Under the pieces are notes generated by a model that searched no databases, was not told where the DNA came from, and saw only the letters and a list, made by a program, of their open reading frames with translations. Of a stretch of DNA of 64,000 bases, positions 11,461-22,441 are shown piece after piece. The DNA is from Spirochaetia bacterium (GTDB lineage: Bacteria; Spirochaetota; Spirochaetia; SZUA-6; Bin103), in the NCBI GenBank assembly GCA_965203905.1, contig CBDBDQ010000005.1:7456001-7520000 (forward strand). The letters run 5' to 3'. How positions within the stretch are numbered: the stretch's first letter is position 1; each line of letters starts with the position of its first letter. The position numbers and the translations under genes are program-made.

Positions 11461-12759
11461 TCAGCTTCCCGCGAGCCCCTGCGCGGCGGCGTAGATCTCG
11501 GCAAACAGCGCCTCCAGGTCGTCATGCGCCACGGTGGAAAACGCCACCCGCAGGTAGTCGTCGCCCACCGAAATGGTGCCGACGCCACGCTCGCGCAACA
11601 GCTTGCGCCGCAGCGTCTCCGCCTTGCCGTCCGCCACCCGCAGGGTGAGGAAGTACCCGGAGTTGAACGGCAGCGGCTGCAGCGGACCAGCGGCGCCCGA
11701 GCGGGCGGCGAGAATCTCCCGCACGCGCCGGTAGCGCACCGCGATCGCCTCCAGGTTGGCGGCACGGTCGGCATGGTAGGTGCCGGTCTGCATCCCGCGC
11801 AGCAGCAGGCTCTGGGTCAACATGCCGGAGCTGGACACCGACGAGCGCACGGCCCCCATCAGCTTCTGCTCCAGCGCGGTGTAGTGGGAAGCACTCAGAC
11901 CGCGCGCCGCCAGCGTGAGGAACCCGAGGCGAAAGCCCCACACGTAGTTTTCCTTCGTGGCGCCGTCCACCTTGACCGCGAGCAGCCCCTCGTGGGCCTG
12001 GTTGAGACGGGCGAACAGCGACTCGTGGCAGCTCTCGGCTTCGTAGAACAGGCCGAAGTAGGCGTCGTCGCAGATCACCACCAGCAGCACCCCACGCGCG
12101 GCGGTTTCTCGCAACGCGTCCGCCAGGGCCGCCATCTCGGCGTCGTTCGGGGTGTAACCGGTCGGGTTGTTGGGGAAGTTGAGGAGCAGGACCACCTTGT
12201 CTCCGGCGGGTGTCCGCTCCAGCGCCGCGGCCACAGCGGCTACGTTGAAGCCTCCCTCCGGGGTAAAGAAGGGAACCGTCTCGAGCTGCGCCTGACGCCG
12301 TTCCTCCATCACCAGGCGGTAGTTGCCCCAAAACAGATCCGGCACCACGACGCGGTCGCCACGCTCCACCAGCAGGTCGGCGGCTATGGTGATGCCGTGG
12401 GTGAGCCCGGCGGTCACCAGGGGCAGTGAGACCGGCCCCTGCAGGCTCGGGTTCTTCTCCTGCATCTCCCGCAGCCAGGCCCGCCGCAGGTCCGGCAGGC
12501 CCGCGGTCGGGGCATAGGCAAAGATCGCCGCGGGATCGAGCTCCGGTATCAAGGCTCGGATACCGTCGAGATAGAGCGGCGTGGCACCGTCGGTGGCGAT
12601 GCCCACCGTGGCATTGAAGCGATGCGCGTGCTGCGTCGCCTCGGCAGTCTGCGCCACCACTCCGCGCGGGAAGTAGAGACGGCGTCCGAAGTCGGACAGC
12701 AGGCGCGGCACAGCGGTGGCGGCGAGCGTACGGTTGAGATCCTCGGCAATGGGGTTCAT
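11461..12759 (-). CDS. PLP-dependent aminotransferase class I/II
   Basis: FNATVGIA, YAPTAG, FWGNY, NFPNNPTGYTP, CDDAYFGL, KVDGATKE..WGFRLGF. Confidence 0.92.
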   Translation of the reverse strand: MNPIAEDLNRTLAATAVPRLLSDFGRRLYFPRGVVAQTAEATQHAHRFNATVGIATDGATPLYLDGIRALIPELDPAAIFAYAPTAGLPDLRRAWLREMQEKNPSLQGPVSLPLVTAGLTHGITIAADLLVERGDRVVVPDLFWGNYRLVMEERRQAQLETVPFFTPEGGFNVAAVAAALERTPAGDKVVLLLNFPNNPTGYTPNDAEMAALADALRETAARGVLLVVICDDAYFGLFYEAESCHESLFARLNQAHEGLLAVKVDGATKENYVWGFRLGFLTLAARGLSASHYTALEQKLMGAVRSSVSSSGMLTQSLLLRGMQTGTYHADRAANLEAIAVRYRRVREILAARSGAAGPLQPLPFNSGYFLTLRVADGKAETLRRKLLRERGVGTISVGDDYLRVAFSTVAHDDLEALFAEIYAAAQGLAGS

Positions 12760-12790
12760 TACGCTGACTGTTGGCGGAATGGCGGGACGT

Positions 12791-12828
12791 TTGTCAACGC
12801 CATCCAATCCAAGCTACATTTCGGTATT
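12791..12828 (+). promoter_or_regulatory. Putative sigma70 promoter of the NifA-like gene with an overlapping degenerate operator
   Basis: TTGTCA (12791-12796)-N18-TACATT (12815-12820); GCTAC-N6-GTATT (12813-12828) resembles the enhancer palindrome. Confidence 0.4.
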
Positions 12829-12830
12829 GA

Positions 12831-14387
12831 ATGTCCTCTGCCGTCTCTCCCGCCGAGGTCCGTAGCGAGGTAAGCGAGCTCAGCCTGCTGTTCGAGATCA
12901 GCCGCATCCTCGACTCCAGCCTCAACCTGCGCGACGTGGTGCACCCGGTGCTGGAGGCTCTGGGGCGACACATGGGGATCCGTCTGGGAGTGCTGACCCT
13001 GCTGAACCGGGCCACCGAGCGCATCTCCATCGAAGCCGCGTTCGGACTGTCGGAGAGCCAGCAGCGGCGCGGCCGGTACAAGATCGGCGAAGGGATTACC
13101 GGCGGCGTGGTGCAGTCCGGCGCCCCCGCCATCGTGCCCAAGATCGCGGACGAGCCGGCCATGGTGCATCGTACCGGTGCCGCCAGCAATCCGGATCTTG
13201 CCGAGCTCTCCTTCATCTGCGTGCCAATCAAGTCGGGCAATTCAGTAATCGGCTCGCTCGGCACCGACAAGCTGTTCCCGCCGGAGGCGCAGTTCGACGA
13301 GGACGTGCGCCTGCTCTCGATCATCGCCTCCATGATCTCGCAGGCGGTCAAGCTGCGGCAGGCTGCGCAGGAGGAACGGCGCCGTCTGTTGGAGGAGAAC
13401 GACCGCCTGCAGGAGGAACTGAAGGATCGGTTCCGGCCCCAGAACCTGGTCGGTAACTCGGAAGGCATGAACAGCGTGTTCCGCCTGGTGGCGCAGGTGT
13501 CCCGCAGCGACGCCACGGTGCTGGTGCGCGGCGAGACCGGCACGGGCAAGGACCTGGTGGCCCACGCGATCCACTACAACAGCGCCCGCGCCACCAAGCC
13601 GTTCATCAAGGTGAACTGCGCCGCGTTGCCGGAATCGGTGATCGAGAGCGAGCTGTTCGGGCATGAGCGCGGCGCGTTCACCGGCGCCGTGGCGACGCGC
13701 AAGGGACGTTTCGAGCTGGCCCACGGCGGGACCCTGTTTCTGGACGAGATCGGCGACCTGTCCTCGGCCACCCAGGTAAAACTGCTGCGGGTGCTCCAGG
13801 AAGGTGAGTTCGAGCGCGTCGGCGGCAACACCACCCAGCGCAGCGACGTCCGCGTCATCGCCGCCACCAACCGCAACCTCGAGGAACTGATCGAGCGGGA
13901 GGAGTTCCGGGCCGACCTCTACTACCGGCTCAACGTATTCCCGATCCACATCCCGCCGCTGCGCGAACGCAAGACCGACCTGCTGCTGCTGGCGGACCAC
14001 TTCGTCGCCAGGTACGGCCGCGAAAACCACAAGGACATCAAGCGCATCACGACCCCCGCGATCGACATGCTGATGAGCTACCACTGGCCCGGTAACGTGC
14101 GCGAACTGGAAAACTGCATCGAGCGGGCAGTGCTGCTGAGCAACGACGAGGTGATTCACGGCCACCACCTGCCGCCGACCCTGCAGACCGCGGACGCGAG
14201 CGGCACCACGCCCAGCGGCAGCCTGCAGGGCACCATCAACGCGATCGAGCGCGAGTTGATCCAGGACGCCCTCAAGTGGGCCAAGGGGAACATGGCGCGC
14301 GCCGCACGGTCGCTGCAGATCAGCGAGCGCATCATGGGCCTGCGGGTGCGCAAGTTCCGAATCGATCCCACCACCTACAAGAGCTGA
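12831..14387 (+). CDS. NifA-like sigma54-dependent transcriptional activator (GAF-AAA+-HTH)
   Basis: N-terminal GAF (GEGITG.V, SFICVPI), Q-linker, GETGTGK, ESELFGHERGAFTGA, FRADLYYRLNV, WPGNVRELEN, Fis-type HTH. No receiver domain. Confidence 0.93.
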   Translation: MSSAVSPAEVRSEVSELSLLFEISRILDSSLNLRDVVHPVLEALGRHMGIRLGVLTLLNRATERISIEAAFGLSESQQRRGRYKIGEGITGGVVQSGAPAIVPKIADEPAMVHRTGAASNPDLAELSFICVPIKSGNSVIGSLGTDKLFPPEAQFDEDVRLLSIIASMISQAVKLRQAAQEERRRLLEENDRLQEELKDRFRPQNLVGNSEGMNSVFRLVAQVSRSDATVLVRGETGTGKDLVAHAIHYNSARATKPFIKVNCAALPESVIESELFGHERGAFTGAVATRKGRFELAHGGTLFLDEIGDLSSATQVKLLRVLQEGEFERVGGNTTQRSDVRVIAATNRNLEELIEREEFRADLYYRLNVFPIHIPPLRERKTDLLLLADHFVARYGRENHKDIKRITTPAIDMLMSYHWPGNVRELENCIERAVLLSNDEVIHGHHLPPTLQTADASGTTPSGSLQGTINAIERELIQDALKWAKGNMARAARSLQISERIMGLRVRKFRIDPTTYKS

Positions 14388-14414
14388 CTCAGCGCGATCA
14401 CTCCGAGAGAGATC

Positions 14415-14461
14415 CCGACATGCCCGTAGGTGCTGACCCTGCCTTCCTACGCCCACGTAGG
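14415..14461. promoter_or_regulatory. Paired upstream activator sites CC(G/T)AC-N6-GTAGG for amtB-PII
   Basis: CCGAC-ATGCCC-GTAGG (14415-14430) and CCTAC-GCCCAC-GTAGG (14446-14461), 31 bp apart. Confidence 0.7.
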
Positions 14462-14515
14462 CTCTTCGAAGCCATCCCAGAGAGTTACTGAGGAGTCCTC
14501 GTACCTGGTTGTCCT

Positions 14516-14531
14516 TGGCACGGAACTTGCT
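14516..14531 (+). promoter_or_regulatory. Sigma54 (-24/-12) promoter of amtB-PII
   Basis: TGGCAC-GGAAC-TTGCT matches the TGGCAC-N5-TTGCW consensus. Confidence 0.88.
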
Positions 14532-14576
14532 TAAGGATTGACATCACACAAATCCGTGTCAAGGAGGACTTGGAGA

Positions 14577-15923
14577 GTGCGACGTTTCCTGATAACAGCC
14601 GGAGCGCTGTTGGTGTTCGGCGCCGTCTACGGCTTCGCCGACTCGAATTCGAACGCTGTGGCAATCGACACCGTGTGGACCTTGATGGCCGCGGTGCTGG
14701 TGTTCCTGATGCAGGCGGGCTTCGCCATGCTGGAGACCGGATTCACCCGTGCCAAGAATGCCGCCAACATCATGATGAAGAACCTGATGGACTTCTCCAT
14801 CGGCACGCTGGCGTTCTGGGCGATCGGCTTCGGAATCATGTTCGGGGCGGACGCCGCGGGGCTGTTCGGCTCCAGCAAGTTCTTCCTGGCCGGGGCCGTG
14901 GTGGACGATGCGTTCTCCGACTTCACCTTCTGGGTATTCCAGGTGATGTTCGCCGCCACTGCCGCAACCATCGTCTCCGGTGCGGTGGCGGAACGCACCC
15001 AGTTCAAGGCCTACCTGGTCTACTCGGTGTTCATCAGCGGGCTGATCTATCCGGTGGTGGGGCATTGGATCTGGGGCGGCGGCTGGCTCAGCAACCTGGG
15101 GCCCAACGGCGTCATGGACTTCGCCGGCTCCACCGTGGTGCACTCGGTCGGCGGCTGGGCCGGTCTCGCTGGAGCCATGGTGCTGGGAGCCCGCGAGGGC
15201 AAGTACGTCAAGAACGGTGCCAACGGCCGGAGCGGCAAGGTCTTGGTCAACGCCATTCAGGGGCATAACATGCCGTTGGCCGCGCTCGGCGTGTTCCTGC
15301 TCTGGTTCGGATGGTTCGGCTTCAACGCCGGCAGCACCGTGGCCGGTACCGATCTGTCCATTGCGGCCATCGCCGTCACCACCAACCTGGCGGCCGCGTC
15401 GGGAGTGGTCGGCGCGCTGATCGTGGCCTGGATCATCTCCGGCAAGCCCGACCCCACCTTTGCCCTGAACGGCGCCATCGCCGGGCTGGTAGCCATCACC
15501 GCCGGCTGCGCCAACCTGTCGCCGGGCAGCGCCGTCATCGTCGGCTTCCTGGGCGGTGTGCTGGTGGTGTTGTCGGTGCAGTTCATAGACCGGGTGCTGC
15601 ACGTGGACGATCCGGTGGGCGCCATCTCCGCCCACGGCGTGGTCGGTGCCTGGGGCACCATCGCCGTCGGCCTGTTCGCGCAGGAAAAGTTCGGCGGCGT
15701 CAACGGCCTGTTCTTCGGCGGCGGTTTCGGCCAGTTGGGCGTGCAGATCGTCGGCGTGCTGGCGGTGTTCGCGTGGACCTTCGTCACTTCTCTGGTATTG
15801 TTCAAGCTGATCAAGGCCACCGTCGGCCTGCGGGTCAGCCGCAACGAGGAGCTGCGCGGGCTTGACATCGAGGAGCACGGCACCGAGGCGTACACCGATT
15901 TCGAGGTGTACACGACCCGCTAG
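14577..15923 (+). CDS. amtB: Ammonium transporter
   Basis: [71 protein letters not shown] precedes GTG 14577. Confidence 0.96.
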
Positions 15924-15936
15924 AGGAGAGGACTCA

Positions 15937-16278
15937 ATGAAGCTCATTATCGCCTACGTTCAGCCGCACAAGCTGAACGACGTAAAGCAGGAGTTGTTCA
16001 AGGAGGAGGTCGGCAAGATGTCGGTAACCAACGCCTTGGGCTGCGGCCAACAGATGGGTTACACCGAGACCTATCGCGGTGTCCAGATCGAGGTAAACCT
16101 GCTCAAGAAGGTGCGTATGGAGATCGCCGTCAACGACGAATTCCTGGAACGTACCATCGACGCCATCGTGCGCGGTGCCCGCACCGGTGAGATCGGCGAC
16201 GGCAAGATCTTCGTGGTCGAGCTCAATCAGTGTATCCGCATCCGCTCCGGTGAAGTGGGCAAGGTGGCTATCGGCTGA
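15937..16278 (+). CDS. glnK: PII nitrogen regulatory protein (GlnK-like), Ile at position 51
   Basis: [21 protein letters not shown]58, [20 protein letters not shown]; adjacent to amtB. Confidence 0.92.
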
Positions 16279-16313
16279 TCCCCGCGCGGCAGGAGCCGAC
16301 TCCGTTTTTCTCG

Positions 16314-16356
16314 ACCCCGACTCGGTGGCGCCGGAGCCATCGGGTCGGGGTTTCTT
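16314..16356 (+). terminator. Intrinsic terminator after glnK
   Basis: CCCCGACTCGGTGGC / GCCATCGGGTCGGGG stem followed by TTTCTT. Confidence 0.7.
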
Positions 16357-16366
16357 GCGCCCGTCG

Positions 16367-19300
16367 TCAGCGGCCGGCCTCGGTCACGTAGCGCAGATAG
16401 GTGGCACGTACCCGCGCGGTTACGGTCGCCAGCAGGTCATTGAACGCCGACACCGAGGCGCCGGCGCCCATCATGCGCCGCGCCAGCGCCGCCAGGGCGG
16501 CGTCGGAGCTGGGCAGTACGTGCACCTGACGGTCCTCGAACACCTGCAGAGAGTGCTCCAGGCGACGCAGAAACAGGTAGTCCTCCCGCAACTGCGCGGC
16601 GCTGCCGGCGCCGAGCACACCCGCCCGCTGCAGGCCCTCGAGCGCCGCGACGGTGCTGCCGCACACCAACTCCGGATGCTGCACCAGGTGCTGCAGTTGC
16701 AACCCCTGAACCAGGAACTCGAGGTCGCGTATGCCGCCGGCACCCGACTTGATGTCGCGGCCCTGGTTGAGTCGGCGCTGAGCCTGACCGGCAACGGCCA
16801 GATTGCGCAGGCGCTCGATGGTGGCGAAGGCGCGCGCGCCGCGCCCGTCCGGATCGCTCCCGAGCCGGGCGAACGCGGCACGCGCGCGCTGCAACAGGGC
16901 CTGACCGACCGCCCGATTGCCCGCGACCGGGCGCATGCGCAACAGCGCCTGCACCTCCCAGTCGTTGGCCGGCCCCGCGTAGTAGGCGGCCAGAGAGCTG
17001 AGTGACTGTGCCAGCTCCCCGGAGCTGCCGTAGGGACGCAGACGCCAATCGACCCGGTACGCGGCCATCTCGCCACGGTGCGCCGCCAGCGTCGTCCCCA
17101 GGGTGCGGGCCAGCTCCGTGACGCCGTGCGCCAGCTCCGTGCTCCTCGCGGGCGCGAGGCCGCGATCGTCGTACAGGGCCACCAGGTCGATGTCGGAGCT
17201 GTAGTTCAGCTCCTCCGCTCCCAGCTTGCCGTAGGCCAGAATGCACACCCGCTCGCGCAGCTCGGGCCGCTCCGCGGCCAGATCGCGTACCGCCACGTGT
17301 ATGAACGCCTCGGCGACCACGGACAGCTCCCGCATCACGTCGGTGACGGGGGCCTGCAGGCAGTAGTCCCGAATCGCGATCCGCAGGATCTCGCGCCGCC
17401 GCAGGATGCGTAGCCGCGGCCGCCAGAATCGGCGCCCGCCCAACTCCTTCACCACGTCCTGCAGCCGGCGCCGCCGGCGCAGTCGCTCCGGTTCGGTAAC
17501 CCAGTCGAACAGCTCCGGACTGCGCACCAGGGCATCCGCCAGGAATTGACTGGTGGCGAAGATCCGAATCAACAGCTCCAGACGCGTCGGCTGCCGCATC
17601 AGGGTACGGAAGTGGTGGCCCGGCTCGTCCAGTGCGGCGACGTAGCGTTCCCAGTTGTTGAGAGCGCGGTCGGGATCGGACTGGTGCGCCAGTTCGTCAC
17701 CGGCGAGCACGGCCAGACGGGCGAACTCCATGCGGTCGGGCGCGCGGGAGGCCAGGCGCACCACATTGGCCGCCGCCCGTTGCGGATGGGCGAAGCCCAG
17801 CCGGCTCAGGACGCGGGCCGCGCCGCCGGCGTCGGCACCGTCATCGGTCGGGCTCAAAACCAGGTCGGCGACGCCGGTAATGCTGCCGGAGCCCAGGGAG
17901 CCGTGGCCGAGGTGGGTGTCGATGAAGCCGCGCACGGCAGCGCGGCGGGTCTCCAACTCCAGGTGCAGCCGCTGCGCCGGAGTCAGCCCCGACGCTCCCC
18001 GGTACGCCATGCGCCGCGCCAGGTGGCCGTACTCTACCGCGCCCGGTTCCGGCAGGTAGAGGTCGAGGGCGGACCCGCGCAGGATACGCAACGCGTTGAT
18101 CAGGCGGCGGTAGAAGTCGTATGCGGCGCCCACCTGCTCCGCCTCCAGCTGCGCCAGAATCCCGGCCTGCGCCAACTCCTCGAGGGCCCGGTGTACGCTG
18201 GGAGTGCGCAACGCCGCCCGGTCCGTACCGTAGCGAACCTGCAGCATCTGCACCGCGTACTCCACGTCCACCAGGGCACCGGGACTGAACTTGGCGTTCA
18301 GGCGGCTCTCGGCGTCGTATTCTTCTACCTGGCGGCGGCGCATCCGGTGCACCTCGTCCAGCGGTATGGCACCGGTGCGGTAGACGAACTCGTCGCGCAG
18401 CCGTTCCAGGCGCGCGCCGAGCTCCCGGTCGCCCGCCACGGCGCGCAGCCGGATCAGCGCCAGCCGTTCGTAGGCCAGCGCTTCGCCGCCGGGGCCGTAG
18501 TAGCGGGCGAAACTCTCCAGGCTCACGGCACGCGGGCCGGCCGCCCCGTACGGCCGCAGGCGCAGGTCGACCTCGAAGATCCCGGCCCGCTTGGCACTGA
18601 TGCGGTTGACCGTTTCCTGCACCAGGCGCCCGTAGTACTCGCCGTTGCCGATCTGCTGCGGGCCGGTGGTGGTCCCGTGGTCGCCGTACACGAACATCAA
18701 CTCGATGTCGGAGGCGTAGCCCAGGGCGCTGCCGCCCATCTTGCCGAGTCCCACCACCGCCAGCCGGGTATCGATGCCGCCCAGGGTCCGCGGTATTCCG
18801 AACTGCGGGCGCAGCGCGTCCGCGGCCAACCCCAGCGCGGCGGCAACCACACACTCGGCCAGCCGGGTCAGGCGCGCGGCGAGCTGCGGCACACCCCCCT
18901 CGCGACTGAGCACGTGCTCCAGGTCGATCAGGAACGCCTCCCGATCCTTGAACGCGTTGAGCGCGGCCACCCGGTCGGCCGCGGTGGGCGCCGCCGCCAC
19001 CGCCTCCCGCAGCCGTTGCCCCACGGTGGCGTCGTCACTGAAGCGGTGCCGTTGCTCCGGTTCCAACATCGGCAACAGGGTTTCGAACTGCTGGCGAATG
19101 AAGTCCTCCCACAGGTAGTCGCTGGTGCCGAGGAGCAGTGCCAGCTCACCCATGATGCGGGGGTCGGCCAGCAGATCGAGGAGACGTCCCTCCTCCGGCA
19201 GCCCGAGGATCTGCTCCGTAAGCTGTTCGAAGCGCAGCAACGCCGCGGAGGGGTCGGGCGCCAGGCCCACGAAGTAGGCGAACTGCTTGGTGAGCAGCAC

Positions 19301-20254
19301 CGAGAGCTTGATCTGATTCAACAGCGTGGGATTGGCGATCGCCGCGCCCGCACGATCCACCACATCCACCACGTCCTCTACCCGTCCCGACTCGGTCGTG
19401 ATCCGTACGCGCTGGATGGACACGTCGCGCAACGCCAGCGCGGCACTGAAGCTGTACAGGAACAGCGGCGTATCCTGAGACACGATGCGCATGCGCGTGA
19501 CGGCGCCGCCGTCGGCGGCCACGACGTTGGAAACTTCGATCTGCACCGGATACAGCGCGGGCGATGTGGGCCAGTGGCGCCGGATGGTCTCCGCCACCAT
19601 TTCGCTCACCCGGCGCCGCGCCGCCTCCGGTGCGCTCCGTTCCAGGTCGCCCGCCACCTCCAGCAGGCGCTGCTCCAGCTGCTGGCGCCACGCCTCCACG
19701 CTCAGGGCACCGGCCTCGGCGGAAACGCGCCGGCCGCGGAAGCGGTCGACGATCATCCGCCGCGGTTGCGGCGCTTGCCGCAGGGTACGGCTTCGCCCGC
19801 GCCGCCGGAGGCGGTCGGCGGCCGCGCGCGAGGTGGCTCGCCGCGATGCCCGTGCGGTCGCGCCTGCCGCAGCATGAGAACCTTCATCGACGCTGCGGGA
19901 CTCGCTGCCGTAGGTGAACGCGGTCCCGGAGTCGATGGCGAATCCGCAGGCACCGAGCACGCCGGTGATGAGAGAGAACATGCCCGCGTGGTCGGCGGCG
20001 AGAATCGTGCACGACAGCGCCTCCGCATCGCCGGCGCCTGCCGCGACCGAGCCGGTCTCCGCGGCGGCGGCCGCCAGCACCACCGCCAGCGGCCGGCGGC
20101 CGTCCAGCCGGCTGATCTCGCGGATGTGCGCCACCACCTCGGGCAGGGAGAACTCAGCGTAGTACTCGTCTCCCAGCCGTGCCAGGTGCGCGTCGATGAA
20201 CGGTTCGTCGACTCCGTCGAGCTGCCTGGCGAGCACCTCACGCCGCGGCTTCAT
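16367..20254 (-). CDS. glnE: Glutamine synthetase adenylyltransferase/deadenylylase with N-terminal GlnD-like ACT domains
   Basis: Two nucleotidyltransferase modules (GLGKMGG..LGYASDIEL / VDLRLRPYG and AYGKLG.EELNYSSDIDL / VDWRLRPYG / DIKSGAGGIRDLEF), preceded by two ACT-like segments; next to glnA. Confidence 0.9.
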   Translation of the reverse strand: MKPRREVLARQLDGVDEPFIDAHLARLGDEYYAEFSLPEVVAHIREISRLDGRRPLAVVLAAAAAETGSVAAGAGDAEALSCTILAADHAGMFSLITGVLGACGFAIDSGTAFTYGSESRSVDEGSHAAAGATARASRRATSRAAADRLRRRGRSRTLRQAPQPRRMIVDRFRGRRVSAEAGALSVEAWRQQLEQRLLEVAGDLERSAPEAARRRVSEMVAETIRRHWPTSPALYPVQIEVSNVVAADGGAVTRMRIVSQDTPLFLYSFSAALALRDVSIQRVRITTESGRVEDVVDVVDRAGAAIANPTLLNQIKLSVLLTKQFAYFVGLAPDPSAALLRFEQLTEQILGLPEEGRLLDLLADPRIMGELALLLGTSDYLWEDFIRQQFETLLPMLEPEQRHRFSDDATVGQRLREAVAAAPTAADRVAALNAFKDREAFLIDLEHVLSREGGVPQLAARLTRLAECVVAAALGLAADALRPQFGIPRTLGGIDTRLAVVGLGKMGGSALGYASDIELMFVYGDHGTTTGPQQIGNGEYYGRLVQETVNRISAKRAGIFEVDLRLRPYGAAGPRAVSLESFARYYGPGGEALAYERLALIRLRAVAGDRELGARLERLRDEFVYRTGAIPLDEVHRMRRRQVEEYDAESRLNAKFSPGALVDVEYAVQMLQVRYGTDRAALRTPSVHRALEELAQAGILAQLEAEQVGAAYDFYRRLINALRILRGSALDLYLPEPGAVEYGHLARRMAYRGASGLTPAQRLHLELETRRAAVRGFIDTHLGHGSLGSGSITGVADLVLSPTDDGADAGGAARVLSRLGFAHPQRAAANVVRLASRAPDRMEFARLAVLAGDELAHQSDPDRALNNWERYVAALDEPGHHFRTLMRQPTRLELLIRIFATSQFLADALVRSPELFDWVTEPERLRRRRRLQDVVKELGGRRFWRPRLRILRRREILRIAIRDYCLQAPVTDVMRELSVVAEAFIHVAVRDLAAERPELRERVCILAYGKLGAEELNYSSDIDLVALYDDRGLAPARSTELAHGVTELARTLGTTLAAHRGEMAAYRVDWRLRPYGSSGELAQSLSSLAAYYAGPANDWEVQALLRMRPVAGNRAVGQALLQRARAAFARLGSDPDGRGARAFATIERLRNLAVAGQAQRRLNQGRDIKSGAGGIRDLEFLVQGLQLQHLVQHPELVCGSTVAALEGLQRAGVLGAGSAAQLREDYLFLRRLEHSLQVFEDRQVHVLPSSDAALAALARRMMGAGASVSAFNDLLATVTARVRATYLRYVTEAGR

Positions 20255-20302
20255 CGGTACCTTCAGGGTACGCGAACCGGACCCGCGGAGTCACCTTGTC
20301 GC

Positions 20303-20344
20303 GAAAACGCCAGGAGCCATGCCGCCGCAACGACATGGCTCCTG
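20303..20344 (-). terminator. Probable intrinsic terminator after glnA
   Basis: Perfect 11-bp stem CAGGAGCCATG/CATGGCTCCTG, followed on the minus strand by GCGTTTT. Confidence 0.6.
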
Positions 20345-20389
20345 CTGAGACGCTCTTGCCTGCTGCTTCAGCAGCAGCGCACCGTCACC

Positions 20390-21811
20390 TCAGATGTCGT
20401 AGTACAGGGCGAACTCCCACGGGTGCGGGCGCAGGTCGAGGGCGGTAACCTCGTTCTCCATCTTGTAGTCGATCCAGGTCTCGAGCACGTCCTCGGTGAA
20501 CACGTCCCCCTTGAGCAGGAACTCATGGTCGTCACGCAGCGCTTCCAGCGCCTCCCGTAGCGAACCGGGGGTGGTTCGGACCTTGGCCAGCTCCTCCGGC
20601 GGCAGATCGTAGAGGTCACGGTCCAGCGGCTCGCCGGGATGGATCTTGTTGGTGATGCCGTCGATCGCCGCCATCACCATGGCCGCGAACCCGAGATAGG
20701 GATTGCAGGATGGATCGGGACAGCGGAACTCGACGCGCTTCGCCTTGGGTGAGGTGGAGTACATGGGAATGCGCACGGCGGCGCTGCGGTTGCGGCGCGA
20801 GTAGGCCAGGTTGACCGGTGCCTCGAAGCCCGGCACCAGCCGCTTGAAGCTGTTGGTCGTGGGATTGGTGAAGCCGATGATCGCGGCCGCGTGGGTGAGC
20901 AGTCCGCCAATGGCGTACAGTGCCATCTCCGACAGCCCTGCGTAACCGTCGCCGGCAAACAGGTTGTTGTCACCCTTCCAGAACGACATGTGGACGTGCA
21001 TGCCGCTGCCGTTGTCCTCGAACAGCGGCTTGGGCATGAAGGTGGCGGTTTTGTTGTAGCGGCGCGCGGTGTTCTTCACCACGTACTTGTACTTGAGCAT
21101 GTTGTCGGCCATGGTCACCAGGGGCGCGAAGCGCATGTCGATCTCGCCCTGGCCGCCGGTGGCTACCTCGTGATGCTGCGCCTCGATGAGAACGCCCATG
21201 TCCTCCAGCGTCATCATCATCTCGCTGCGCAGGTCCTGCAGGCTGTCGGTCGGCGGCACCGGGAAGTAGCCTTCCTTGTAGCGCGGCTTGTAGGCCAGGT
21301 TGGGGTTCTCTTCACGCCCGGAGTTCCAGCGCCCCTCCTCCGAGTCGATGTGATAGTAGCCCTCGTGCTCGTTCTGGTCGAAGCGCACGTCGTCGAAGAT
21401 GAAGAATTCCGCCTCCGGCCCGAAAAAGGCGATGTCGGCGAGGCCGGAGGAACTGAGGTAGGCCTCGGCCTTGCGTGCGATGTTGCGCGGGTCACGGGTG
21501 TAGTCCTCTCCGGTCATCGGATCCGAGATGTTGCAGATCATGACCAGCGTCTTGCGGGCCAGGAACGGGTCGATGAAGCCGGTCTCCGGAATCGGCTTGA
21601 CCAGCATGTCGGACTCATTGATCGACTGCCAGCCGCGGATGCTGGAACCGTCGAAGCCGAGGCCGCCCTCGAAATCGTCCTCCGACAGCTCGCGGGCGGG
21701 AATCGAGAAATGCTGCCACAGACCGGGGAAGTCCATGAAGCGCAGGTCGATGACCTCGATCGTTTCCTCGGCGATCAGCTTCATCACATCACCAGGTGTC
21801 TTGAGATTCAC
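20390..21811 (-). CDS. glnA: Type I glutamine synthetase (GSI-beta, adenylylatable)
   Basis: [69 protein letters not shown]; adenylylation motif DLYDL. Confidence 0.98.
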
Positions 21812-21861
21812 TGTTTCCTCCTCATGAATCGCGCGCTAGCGCACTACGTCACCCAAGTATT

Positions 21862-21877
21862 AGCAAGATCCATACCA
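21862..21877 (-). promoter_or_regulatory. Sigma54 (-24/-12) promoter of glnA
   Basis: Minus strand TGGTAT-GGATC-TTGCT. Confidence 0.82.
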
Positions 21878-21919
21878 TGGCTCGAAACCACTCGATACTG
21901 CCTGCATCGCACGCGGAGA

Positions 21920-21967
21920 GCTACATGTATGTAGGGCACCGCGCCAGGATTCCTACCAAATGGTTCG
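21920..21967. promoter_or_regulatory. Paired upstream activator sites for glnA
   Basis: GCTAC-ATGTAT-GTAGG (21920-21935) and CCTAC-CAAATG-GTTCG (21952-21967), 32 bp apart; same motif as at amtB. Confidence 0.65.
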
Positions 21968-22015
21968 ATTCTCGATTCGTTGATCGCCGAGCCAGGGGCG
22001 TGCTATACAACCGAC

Positions 22016-22441
22016 GTGGCAAGTCTATCGAGAACCCTGGCCCTGATCAAACCCGACGCCTTCGACCGCCGCCTAACCGGCAAGCTCATCGACGCCGCCC
22101 TGGAAGCCGGCCTCGCCATCGTGTCCGTAAAGAGCGTCAAACTCAACCGCGCCCAGGCCGAGGCGTTCTACGCGGTGCATCGCGAGCGGCCCTTCTTCTC
22201 GTCGCTGGTCGAATTCATGACCTCGGGCACCACGGTGGCCATGGTCCTGGAGGGAGCGGACGCGGTTGCCCTCTGGCGCCGGGCCATGGGCGCCACCGAC
22301 CCCGCCGACGCGGCGGAGGGCACCATCCGCCGCCGCTTCGCGGAGTCGATAGAACGCAACTGCTGCCACGGCTCAGACTCCGACGCCAACGCCGCCATCG
22401 AAATAGGCTGCTTCTTCAGCGGCGAGGAACTGCTCAGATAG
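22016..22441 (+). CDS. ndk: Nucleoside-diphosphate kinase
   Basis: RTLALIKPDA, FYAVHRERPFF, GATDP..A.EGTIR, NCCHGSDS. Confidence 0.95.
   Translation: MASLSRTLALIKPDAFDRRLTGKLIDAALEAGLAIVSVKSVKLNRAQAEAFYAVHRERPFFSSLVEFMTSGTTVAMVLEGADAVALWRRAMGATDPADAAEGTIRRRFAESIERNCCHGSDSDANAAIEIGCFFSGEELLR

Follow-up and report, generated by a model that had tools for sequence, protein, structure and literature searches.

The textbook scheme of nitrogen control, in which GlnD uridylylates PII and PII-UMP relays the signal to NtrBC and to GlnE, derives from Proteobacteria, and most phyla seen in this analysis lack its parts (Spirochaetota, Planctomycetota, Verrucomicrobiota, Kiritimatiellota, Fibrobacterota, Hydrogenedentota, Acidobacteriota and others). 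How ammonium assimilation is controlled in such bacteria is the question raised by a gene cluster in the genome of a high-GC Spirochaetia bacterium (G000; 7.99 Mb in 5 contigs, 98.7% complete, 7.9% estimated contamination). The window, by which we mean the whole stretch of 64,000 nucleotides that was analysed (G000:C5:7456001-7520000), carries between 11.4 and 22.4 kb, in this order, genes for an aminotransferase (minus strand), a sigma54-dependent activator (plus), the ammonium transporter AmtB (plus), a PII protein (plus), GlnE (minus), the glutamine synthetase (GS) GlnA (minus) and Ndk (plus). Feature positions below are counted from the first letter of the window. A preliminary description had singled out the five elements from the activator to glnA as one cluster, and domain and profile searches confirmed all five at their positions. 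The complete cluster was also found in L021-L026, L099 and L135, and the closest public relatives by GlnE similarity are metagenome-assembled genomes of Spirochaetia/Spirochaetales (68-89% identity).

The evidence leans, if slightly, towards the cluster being a core ammonium-assimilation control module, in which an enhancer-binding protein (EBP) of the NifA family, a PII that cannot be modified and a permuted GlnE with ACT domains (ACT-GlnE) would operate without GlnD, an NtrBC equivalog or nitrogenase. The genome has no GlnD; the best match, at 21.9 bits against a cut-off of 519.4, is the ACT region of GlnE, and neither in ACT-GlnE nor elsewhere in the genome is there a counterpart of the nucleotidyltransferase and HD domains of GlnD. 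The earlier remark that the window holds no nif gene extends to the whole genome, in which no nifH above the cut-off and no nifDK (Oxidored_nitro) was found, and there is one rpoN. The estimated contamination tells slightly against this reading, as it weakens statements on genome content, the absences being unaffected.

A GlnE protein with a GlnD-type tandem-ACT module

The glnE gene of the cluster (16367-20254, minus strand) encodes a protein of 1295 residues with two GlnE and two GlnD_UR_UTase domains. Residues 1 to ~330 (19265..20254, minus) form an N-terminal module composed of a helical linker, a first ACT unit with a disordered insert and a second ACT unit. The catalytic part (16367..19264, minus) consists of an adenylyltransferase (AT)-like domain with the motif GYASDIE, followed by an adenylyl-removing (AR)-like domain with the motif NYSSDIDL. 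The presence of GlnD-type ACT domains in this protein, part of the preliminary description, was borne out by two approaches. Firstly, the module matches the C-terminal part of GlnD models (TIGR01693 positions 616-842), and alignment with the C-termini of seven GlnD proteins using hhalign gave a probability of 98.9% (E 1.5e-17, 240 columns), the linker before ACT1 included. Secondly, the AlphaFold model of the module (predicted local distance difference test 84.6, predicted template-modelling score 0.82) contains two beta-alpha-beta-beta-alpha-beta units, the first with a disordered Arg/Ala-rich insert. The top structural match in VIA-align was Synechocystis aspartate kinase (Z 9.8, 167 residues), and further matches were ACT-like domains with Z 8.4-8.6, CASTOR, the threonine dehydratase regulatory domain and the ACT region of the mycobacterial L-GDH180; Foldseek with the whole 350-residue model returned, besides this L-GDH180 region, mostly matches with low template-modelling scores. 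Across 28 sequences belonging to several phyla, conservation of the ACT module is high.

The order of the domains is unusual as well. The C-terminal catalytic domain scores 133 bits to the E. coli AR domain versus 83 to AT, and its motif LNYSSDIDL resembles the AR motif LNFSSDIDL, while LGYASDIE in the first catalytic domain resembles the AT motif LGYSSDLDL. When ACT-GlnE was compared by BLASTP with a protein of 1179 residues from genome G189, in which the module stands between the two nucleotidyltransferase (NT) domains, residues 5-783 aligned with 426-1176 (E 3e-92) and residues 949-1295 with 71-421 (E 2e-40), thus in swapped order. Judged from these alignments, the ACT-AT-AR and AR-ACT-AT forms of GlnE are circular permutations of each other, and in both the ACT pair stands directly before the AT-like (GYASDIE) domain. 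Among the 19 genomes with the ACT module in a phylum sample of 151 genomes, 34 of which have GlnE domains, six show the order ACT-NT-NT (G000 included), 11 show NT-ACT-NT, and two are fragmentary. In G189 (C1:1201991-1210890), and likewise in G182 (C73:100978-107645), a two-GAF EBP of ~695 residues is encoded 4-6 kb from the AR-ACT-AT GlnE, and each of the two genomes carries, in addition, GlnD-like genes that score under the cut-off.

ACT-GlnE spans at least eight phyla in these two circularly permuted forms. Going by the titles of their records, its full-length relatives belong to Spirochaetes, Desulfobacterota ('Deltaproteobacteria', Desulfobacteraceae, Desulfatiglans, NaphS2), Planctomycetes/Phycisphaerae, Verrucomicrobiota, Kiritimatiellota, Fibrobacterota, Chitinivibrionales, Marinamargulisbacteria and others. 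The protein remains under all three NCBIfam GlnE equivalog cut-offs (484.9 bits against 625, 423.2 against 487 and 350.2 against 724), and databases name its relatives plainly 'glutamate-ammonia-ligase adenylyltransferase', with a precomputed Pfam ACT domain in 10 of 97. No paper joining GlnE and an ACT domain was found in the literature searched, from which most subscription journals were outside the scope. ACT-GlnE is thus a widespread permuted GlnE architecture, apparently undescribed, and the more novel half of the cluster.

What this GlnE does can be framed from its neighbour. Next to glnE stands glnA, for a type I glutamine synthetase (20390..21811, minus; TIGR00653 655 bits) with the motif DLYDLPPEE, which we take to surround the adenylylated tyrosine. 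The permuted GlnE, in which the tandem-ACT module immediately precedes the AT-like domain and the AR-like domain comes last, would set the activity of this GS: glutamine would bind the ACT pair and gate adenylylation of the GS tyrosine directly, thereby shortening the GlnD-PII-GlnE cascade.

Several observations weigh against such a role. The Pfam ACT match to the N-terminus of the window GlnE is weak (E 0.099; 2.7e-6 to 0.05 in four relatives), the first catalytic domain gives a near tie between AT (119.9 bits) and AR (117.2 bits), and it carries D-x-E where D-x-D is usual. Outside the window, the genome encodes another GlnE, of the canonical AR-AT type (G000:C5:6171472-6173727; L199:5668-9231) and with the motifs NYSSDIDL and then DSDLDL; the modifier of GS is therefore not necessarily ACT-GlnE. 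In addition, GlnD above the cut-off is present in 12 of 50 ACT-GlnE genomes, all of them Desulfobacterota by record title. ACT-GlnE might therefore not be a direct glutamine-gated modifier of GS: its ACT domains could bind another ligand or serve assembly only, as ACT domains bind many different amino acids, or its target could be PII or a GS-like paralog, with the canonical GlnE handling GS. We regard this as unlikely, though far from fanciful. The commonest neighbour of ACT-glnE is glnA, present in the flanking sequence retrieved for 32 of 75 loci. In four close relatives ACT-GlnE is always present, the canonical GlnE is present in two, and ACT-GlnE is the sole GlnE in the other two. The module is, moreover, homologous to the whole regulatory C-terminus of GlnD, beyond the ACT fold, and this C-terminal region is the glutamine-sensing part of GlnD. 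Plant and algal papers, too, discuss ACT domains that sense glutamine and are related to GlnD.

Two features of the paralogs should be mentioned here. The ~200 N-terminal residues of the canonical GlnE open frame are rich in His and Arg and look non-coding. The genome has two GS-family genes, the second of which (L200:2283-5253; G000:C5:5290283-5293253) shows a Gln-synt_C match of 294 bits and a weak N domain, and follows a gene for a protein of 532 residues with a Glu_synthase domain; it possibly belongs to a gamma-glutamyl-amine synthetase system rather than being a second GS.

Direct gating of GS by ACT-GlnE stays the preferred reading, and the two permuted layouts in which this large GlnE subfamily carries the GlnD-type module offer a natural experiment on the coupling of glutamine to GS adenylylation, and on what the central region of GlnE, so far poorly understood, does. 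More tentatively, and short of calling it probable, we propose that ACT-GlnE is a self-contained glutamine sensor-effector that has a GlnD-derived ACT pair wired straight to its AT domain, works without GlnD or PII modification, was kept through permutation in at least eight phyla and, together with a NifA-family master regulator, represents a second widespread logic of nitrogen control.

PII and the co-occurrence of the modules

The amtB gene (14577..15923, plus; PF00909 430.7 bits) has a GTG start codon that aligns with the ATG of its relatives, and it is followed by a gene for a GlnK-type PII of 113 residues (15937..16278, plus; PF00543 81.7 bits, cut-off 25). This is the sole PII gene of the genome and, among four Amt genes, it adjoins the window amtB alone. 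The PII had been noted before to lack the tyrosine that is uridylylated, and the alignment indeed shows Ile at T-loop position 51 in the window and in close relatives, and T, V, F or Q in the wider clade. The residues Q39, K58, G87, D88, G89, R101 and R103 are invariant in 16 aligned clade members, and K90 is conserved in at least 90%; Q39, K58, G87-K90, R101 and R103 are the ligand residues for ATP and 2-oxoglutarate. A PII that cannot be uridylylated at residue 51, in a genome without GlnD, would presumably signal only by binding ATP, ADP and 2-oxoglutarate, and plug AmtB.

A check of whether ACT-GlnE, a Tyr51-less PII and the activator occur together across genomes had been suggested, and tight co-variation was not found. 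The Tyr51-less PII clade, recognizable by CGQQxGYxExYRGVxxEVNLL, was always seen beside an activator homolog and amtB, while the activator family adjoins amtB-PII whether or not the PII keeps Tyr51. Tyr51 is kept in GlnD-bearing ACT-GlnE genomes where the PII is readable (L027, L028, L030, L086), and most GlnD-less ACT-GlnE genomes lack it, L034 and L049 being GlnD-less exceptions with Tyr51. GlnD-like genes are carried by 3 of the 19 phylum-sample genomes with ACT-GlnE, which again speaks for coexistence, by 7 of 15 with plain GlnE and by 16 of 117 without GlnE, numbers that are small and come from mutually related genomes. Among the 50 ACT-GlnE genomes mentioned above, one more, from Kiritimatiellota, has a GlnD below the cut-off. 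The relation between ACT-GlnE and GlnD is thus a trend, not a rule.

The notion that ACT-GlnE replaces GlnD as a rule was rejected, as both coexist in Desulfobacterota and in three of the 19 phylum-sample genomes. With both proteins together in 12-13 of 50 and in 3 of 19 genomes, ACT-GlnE is not simply a GlnD substitute. The earlier proposal that glutamine sensing has moved onto GlnE is therefore not supported as a general rule: the genome studied here has no GlnD, but the 12 GlnD-bearing genomes and the second, canonical GlnE speak against it. The 'system' is made up of three semi-independent modules, which are physically joined in this clade.

The activator, its putative operator and the flanking genes

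The first gene of the cluster (12831..14387, plus) encodes a one-component sigma54 EBP of the NifA family, 518 residues long, with GAF, Sigma54_activat, AAA_lid_14 and HTH_8 domains. The domain search found a single GAF and no receiver domain, in agreement with the GAF-AAA+-HTH architecture described before. The match to the nifA model TIGR01817 is a narrow pass (540 bits, cut-off 528.85) that covers residues 16-447 and leaves the C-terminal part uncovered, and the NtrC model TIGR01818 gave 355 bits, below its cut-off of 558.6. The genome encodes seven EBPs, five with a receiver, one AAA-only and the GAF activator, which is the sole non-receiver DNA-binding EBP among them. Directly 5' of the gene lies a candidate sigma70-like promoter, TTGTCA-18-TACATT (12791..12820, plus), from which the EBP is probably expressed; it is the single match in 12600-22100, where 0.7 are expected by chance, and its -10 element ends 10 nt before the activator ATG, which would leave the mRNA with almost no leader.

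Full-length homologs with 48-96% identity occur in many phyla, those of 48-70% being abundant in Planctomycetota, Desulfomonilaceae, Syntrophales, Hydrogenedentota, Lentisphaerae, Verrucomicrobiota, Kiritimatiellia, Acidobacteriota, Myxococcaceae and others. Among the neighbours of activator homologs at 80 loci from several phyla were amtB (24), PII (27) and glnA (14). Strong matches to the N-terminal (GAF) region were obtained in 28 genomes of the phylum sample, mostly in frames of ~490-600 residues. The sample contains 12 genomes with nifH above the cut-off, nine of which have a strong activator ortholog, and nifH is absent from 19 of the 28 genomes with such an ortholog. An ortholog stands directly upstream of nifH in G127 and G154, and a GAF-region match lies within 15 kb of nifH in G093, G193 and G094.

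As proposed before, two sigma54 promoters share a putative enhancer motif, and both promoters and motif are conserved in relatives. The amtB-PII promoter, TGGCACGGAACTTGCT (14516..14531, plus), is kept in six of six close relatives, and the glnA promoter, TGGTATGGATCTTGCT (21862..21877, minus), in L022-L026. The motif upstream is a 16-bp palindrome of the type cCTAC-N6-GTAGg, located at -69 for amtB (CCTACGCCCACGTAGG, 14446..14461, plus; the equivalent is conserved in L021-L026) and, as a putative enhancer site, at -57 for glnA (CCTACATACATGTAGC, 21920..21935, minus). A distal enhancer-like site with one mismatch, cCGACATGCCCGTAGg (14415..14430, plus), lies 31 bp upstream of the proximal amtB site, a two-site arrangement also seen in relatives. 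A candidate second glnA site with two mismatches, GAACCATTTGGTAG (21953..21966, minus), may lie 31 bp upstream of the first, and L024 has a counterpart, CGACCATTTGGTAG. In close relatives the promoter and a CTAC-N6-GTAG-type site keep the same place before amtB (6/6) and glnA (5/5), although the flanks have diverged.

Genome-wide, the promoter consensus TGGYAY-N5-TTGCW has 24 sites in 8 Mb, including those before amtB and glnA, and CTAC-N6-GTAG occurs 69 times, only three of these 57-112 nt upstream of a strict promoter. With up to one mismatch, the palindrome was found 30-150 nt upstream of five of 39 TGGYAY-N5-TTGC[ATC] sites, where ~1.2 would be expected from its genome-wide density. The genes behind these five promoters are amtB-PII, glnA, UrtA (TIGR03407 584.5, cut-off 492.75) with two permeases, a NarK-like transporter with NirA (NF007126 747.5, cut-off 523) and a flavoprotein, and an Msp-like porin; four of the five targets are classic nitrogen-scavenging functions. 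A relaxed search (promoter with up to two mismatches, palindrome with up to one) speaks against the regulon in that it gave 95 hits versus 94 in the downstream control, thus no enrichment; this search is uninformative, so the regulon is drawn from the strict promoters only.

At the Msp-like porin gene (L096:2154-4248; G000:C5:2078154-2080248), a perfect CCTACAAACATGTAGG with TGGCACGGGCGTTGCT lies ~580 nt upstream; the gene encodes a very acidic protein of 460 residues with a signal peptide, which is weakly Msp-porin-like (52 bits, cut-off 200), and is followed by trpE, trpGD, trpCF, trpB and trpA. Another palindrome, ACTACGTCTGAGTAGA, recurs without change, accompanied by TGGAGGCGCGCCTGC exactly 104 nt away, in at least eight places of the genome (examples at C5:345044, 466241, 1397135, 2393387, 5867428 and 6846408, and reversed at 2335332 and 4132560); this pair resembles a repeat or insertion element present in many copies and seems to have no relation to the regulon.

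On this basis, the single-GAF EBP would bind cCTAC-N6-GTAGg, often at two sites ~31 bp apart and 57-118 nt upstream of sigma54 promoters, and switch on a nitrogen-scavenging regulon of amtB-glnK, glnA, urtA and following genes, narK-nirA and the Msp-like outer-membrane porin. Its GAF domain may read nitrogen status via 2-oxoglutarate and/or unmodified PII. In the diazotroph G127 the order is activator ortholog, CCTACCAAAACGTAAG, TGGCACACTCCTTGCA and nifH. The same regulator family and operator type at nifH in diazotrophs suggests that nif is served where present, and the assimilation genes here; the EBP would then be the general nitrogen regulator of its lineage, an analogue of NtrC.

An alternative is that amtB and glnA are driven by a divergent NtrBC pair, with the GAF activator doing something else or contributing little. 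Two NtrC/AtoC-like EBPs of the receiver type, each encoded next to a histidine kinase, count for this and against our reading: a regulator of 452 residues at C5:4.16 Mb, with a PAS kinase of 759 residues, and another at C5:4.675 Mb. Both have the full-length receiver-AAA+-HTH architecture, and they are the two best receiver-type matches to the NtrC model, at 434 and 399 bits. No EBP of the genome reaches the cut-off of 558.6, one so strict that among the control genomes E. coli alone passes and Caulobacter fails. The kinases are AtoS/ZraS-like, however, and the one of 759 residues, which alone matches the NtrB model, remains far under the cut-off (102 versus 240 bits). Neither EBP is linked to nitrogen genes, and one adjoins murG. 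The five promoters have no NtrC-type site upstream, and in relatives the palindrome accompanies the gene for the GAF activator, as it does in G127, where it precedes nifH beside the ortholog. Given the strict NtrC cut-off, we consider a functional NtrBC likely, rather than certain, to be absent, and control of amtB and glnA by one of the receiver-type EBPs improbable. That the activator is a nif-specific NifA stranded after loss of nif, with the amtB adjacency incidental, is very improbable: it passes the equivalog cut-off and its orthologs adjoin nifH in G127 and G154, but 19 of the 28 genomes with a strong ortholog have no nifH, the gene is intact with 82-96% conservation of its N-terminal 200 residues in six non-nif relatives, the target sites are kept, and the adjacency to amtB-PII recurs in several phyla.

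The orthologs beside nifH in diazotrophic relatives indicate that the activator is a true NifA relative in broader use, not one defined by the absence of nif. Judged by sequence and gene context, it looks like a phylum-wide master nitrogen regulator of the NifA family that is not nif-specific. The earlier view that transcription here is run by a one-component NifA-type protein thus gains from the activator being the sole GAF EBP and from the coherent nitrogen regulon marked by the palindrome, and needs the amendment that the family serves nifH in diazotrophs. A protein that annotation pipelines would name 'nif-specific' is probably a general nitrogen regulator in many non-diazotrophs and, when metagenomes are read, a 'NifA' annotation should not signal diazotrophy.

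On its left, the cluster is flanked by a class I/II aminotransferase gene (11461..12807, minus; PF00155; NF006388 514.9 bits) that is divergent from the activator gene, has its true start probably near 12760 and keeps its synteny in L021-L026, L099 and L135. At nine other Spirochaetaceae/Spirochaetales loci (L043, L044, L046, L047, L048, L053, L057, L065, L070), an aminotransferase homolog lies immediately downstream of ACT-glnE in a flank without activator, amtB or glnA, an adjacency which suggests that the transaminase is functionally tied to ACT-GlnE. The right border is formed by ndk (21980..22441, plus; PF00334 167.5 bits), divergent from glnA. Contigs from three RNA libraries of three studies, 90-99% alike, overlie parts of the activator gene, amtB, PII, glnE and glnA; they derive from relatives and reveal neither transcription nor starts, and to that extent lend the proposed module no support. 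Sponge, coral and biofilm metagenome runs share 0.22-0.39 of the sampled words of window positions 12700-22100, from which no habitat is inferred.

Comparison with known systems

Like proteobacterial NifA, the activator has a GAF-AAA+-HTH architecture of the sigma54-dependent type, passes TIGR01817 and has orthologs beside nifH in diazotrophic spirochaetes. It differs from NifA in that its genome lacks nif, its putative targets are amtB-glnK, glnA, urt and narK-nirA, and its motif is CTAC-N6-GTAG. The upstream activating sequence of NifA is TGT-N10-ACA, and no such sequence occurs within 250 nt upstream of the five promoters.

Whether the circuit had been described before was left open by the preliminary description, and two precedents exist for its transcriptional half. 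A review reports that EbpA of Leptospira interrogans, a GAF-type one-component EBP, activates amtB and lipoprotein genes with RpoN and is needed under nitrogen limitation (PMC12655853). The review describes EbpA with two GAF domains (PMC12655853), in contrast to the one of the window activator. In the phylum sample, a class of ~700-residue frames, several with two GAF matches, matches the activator GAF at ~1e-42, and it fills family f14, whose ~4.4-Mb genomes also have GlnD-like genes and no GlnE. Our guess is that f14 is Leptospira and that this class is EbpA.

The second precedent comes from Desulfovibrio vulgaris, in which DVU1231-1233 are, we assume, the amtB-glnB and GS/glutamate synthase (GOGAT) genes. 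Kazakov et al. 2015 predicted that the single-component EBP DVU1949 controls DVU1231-1233 and further operons of nitrogen metabolism and transport (PMC4641369). The predicted sites are palindromes of 16 bp centred on ACA-N4-TGT, such as ATGACATTTCTGTCAT (PMC4641369), which has the same geometry as CCTACATACATGTAGC of the window, the half-site flanks being TTGAC versus CCTAC. By eye, the recognition helices of DVU1949 and of the window activator share R-x-M-G-x-R-[IV]-R. Desulfovibrio has, besides, a regulator of the NtrC type that acts on amtB, and a further one for nif. For non-diazotrophs or Spirochaeta, the literature search described above gave nothing relevant on amtB/glnK being controlled in the NifA manner. 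The transcriptional half of the cluster is thus a member of an already glimpsed kind, the one-component GAF EBP nitrogen regulator, now with a defined putative operator, a regulon and a link to nif; for ACT-GlnE no precedent was found in that search.

ACT-GlnE itself combines features of two known proteins. As in canonical E. coli GlnE, there are two GlnE domains, each followed by a GlnD_UR_UTase domain, and the structures 1V4A (AR) and 3K7D (AT) were matched with E values of 1e-22 to 1e-38. Unlike canonical GlnE, it has a GlnD-type tandem-ACT module, the order ACT-AT-AR instead of AR-AT, and D-I-E in its AT-like motif. What it has in common with GlnD is the C-terminal regulatory region of linker, ACT1 and ACT2, which is homologous to the N-terminus of ACT-GlnE.

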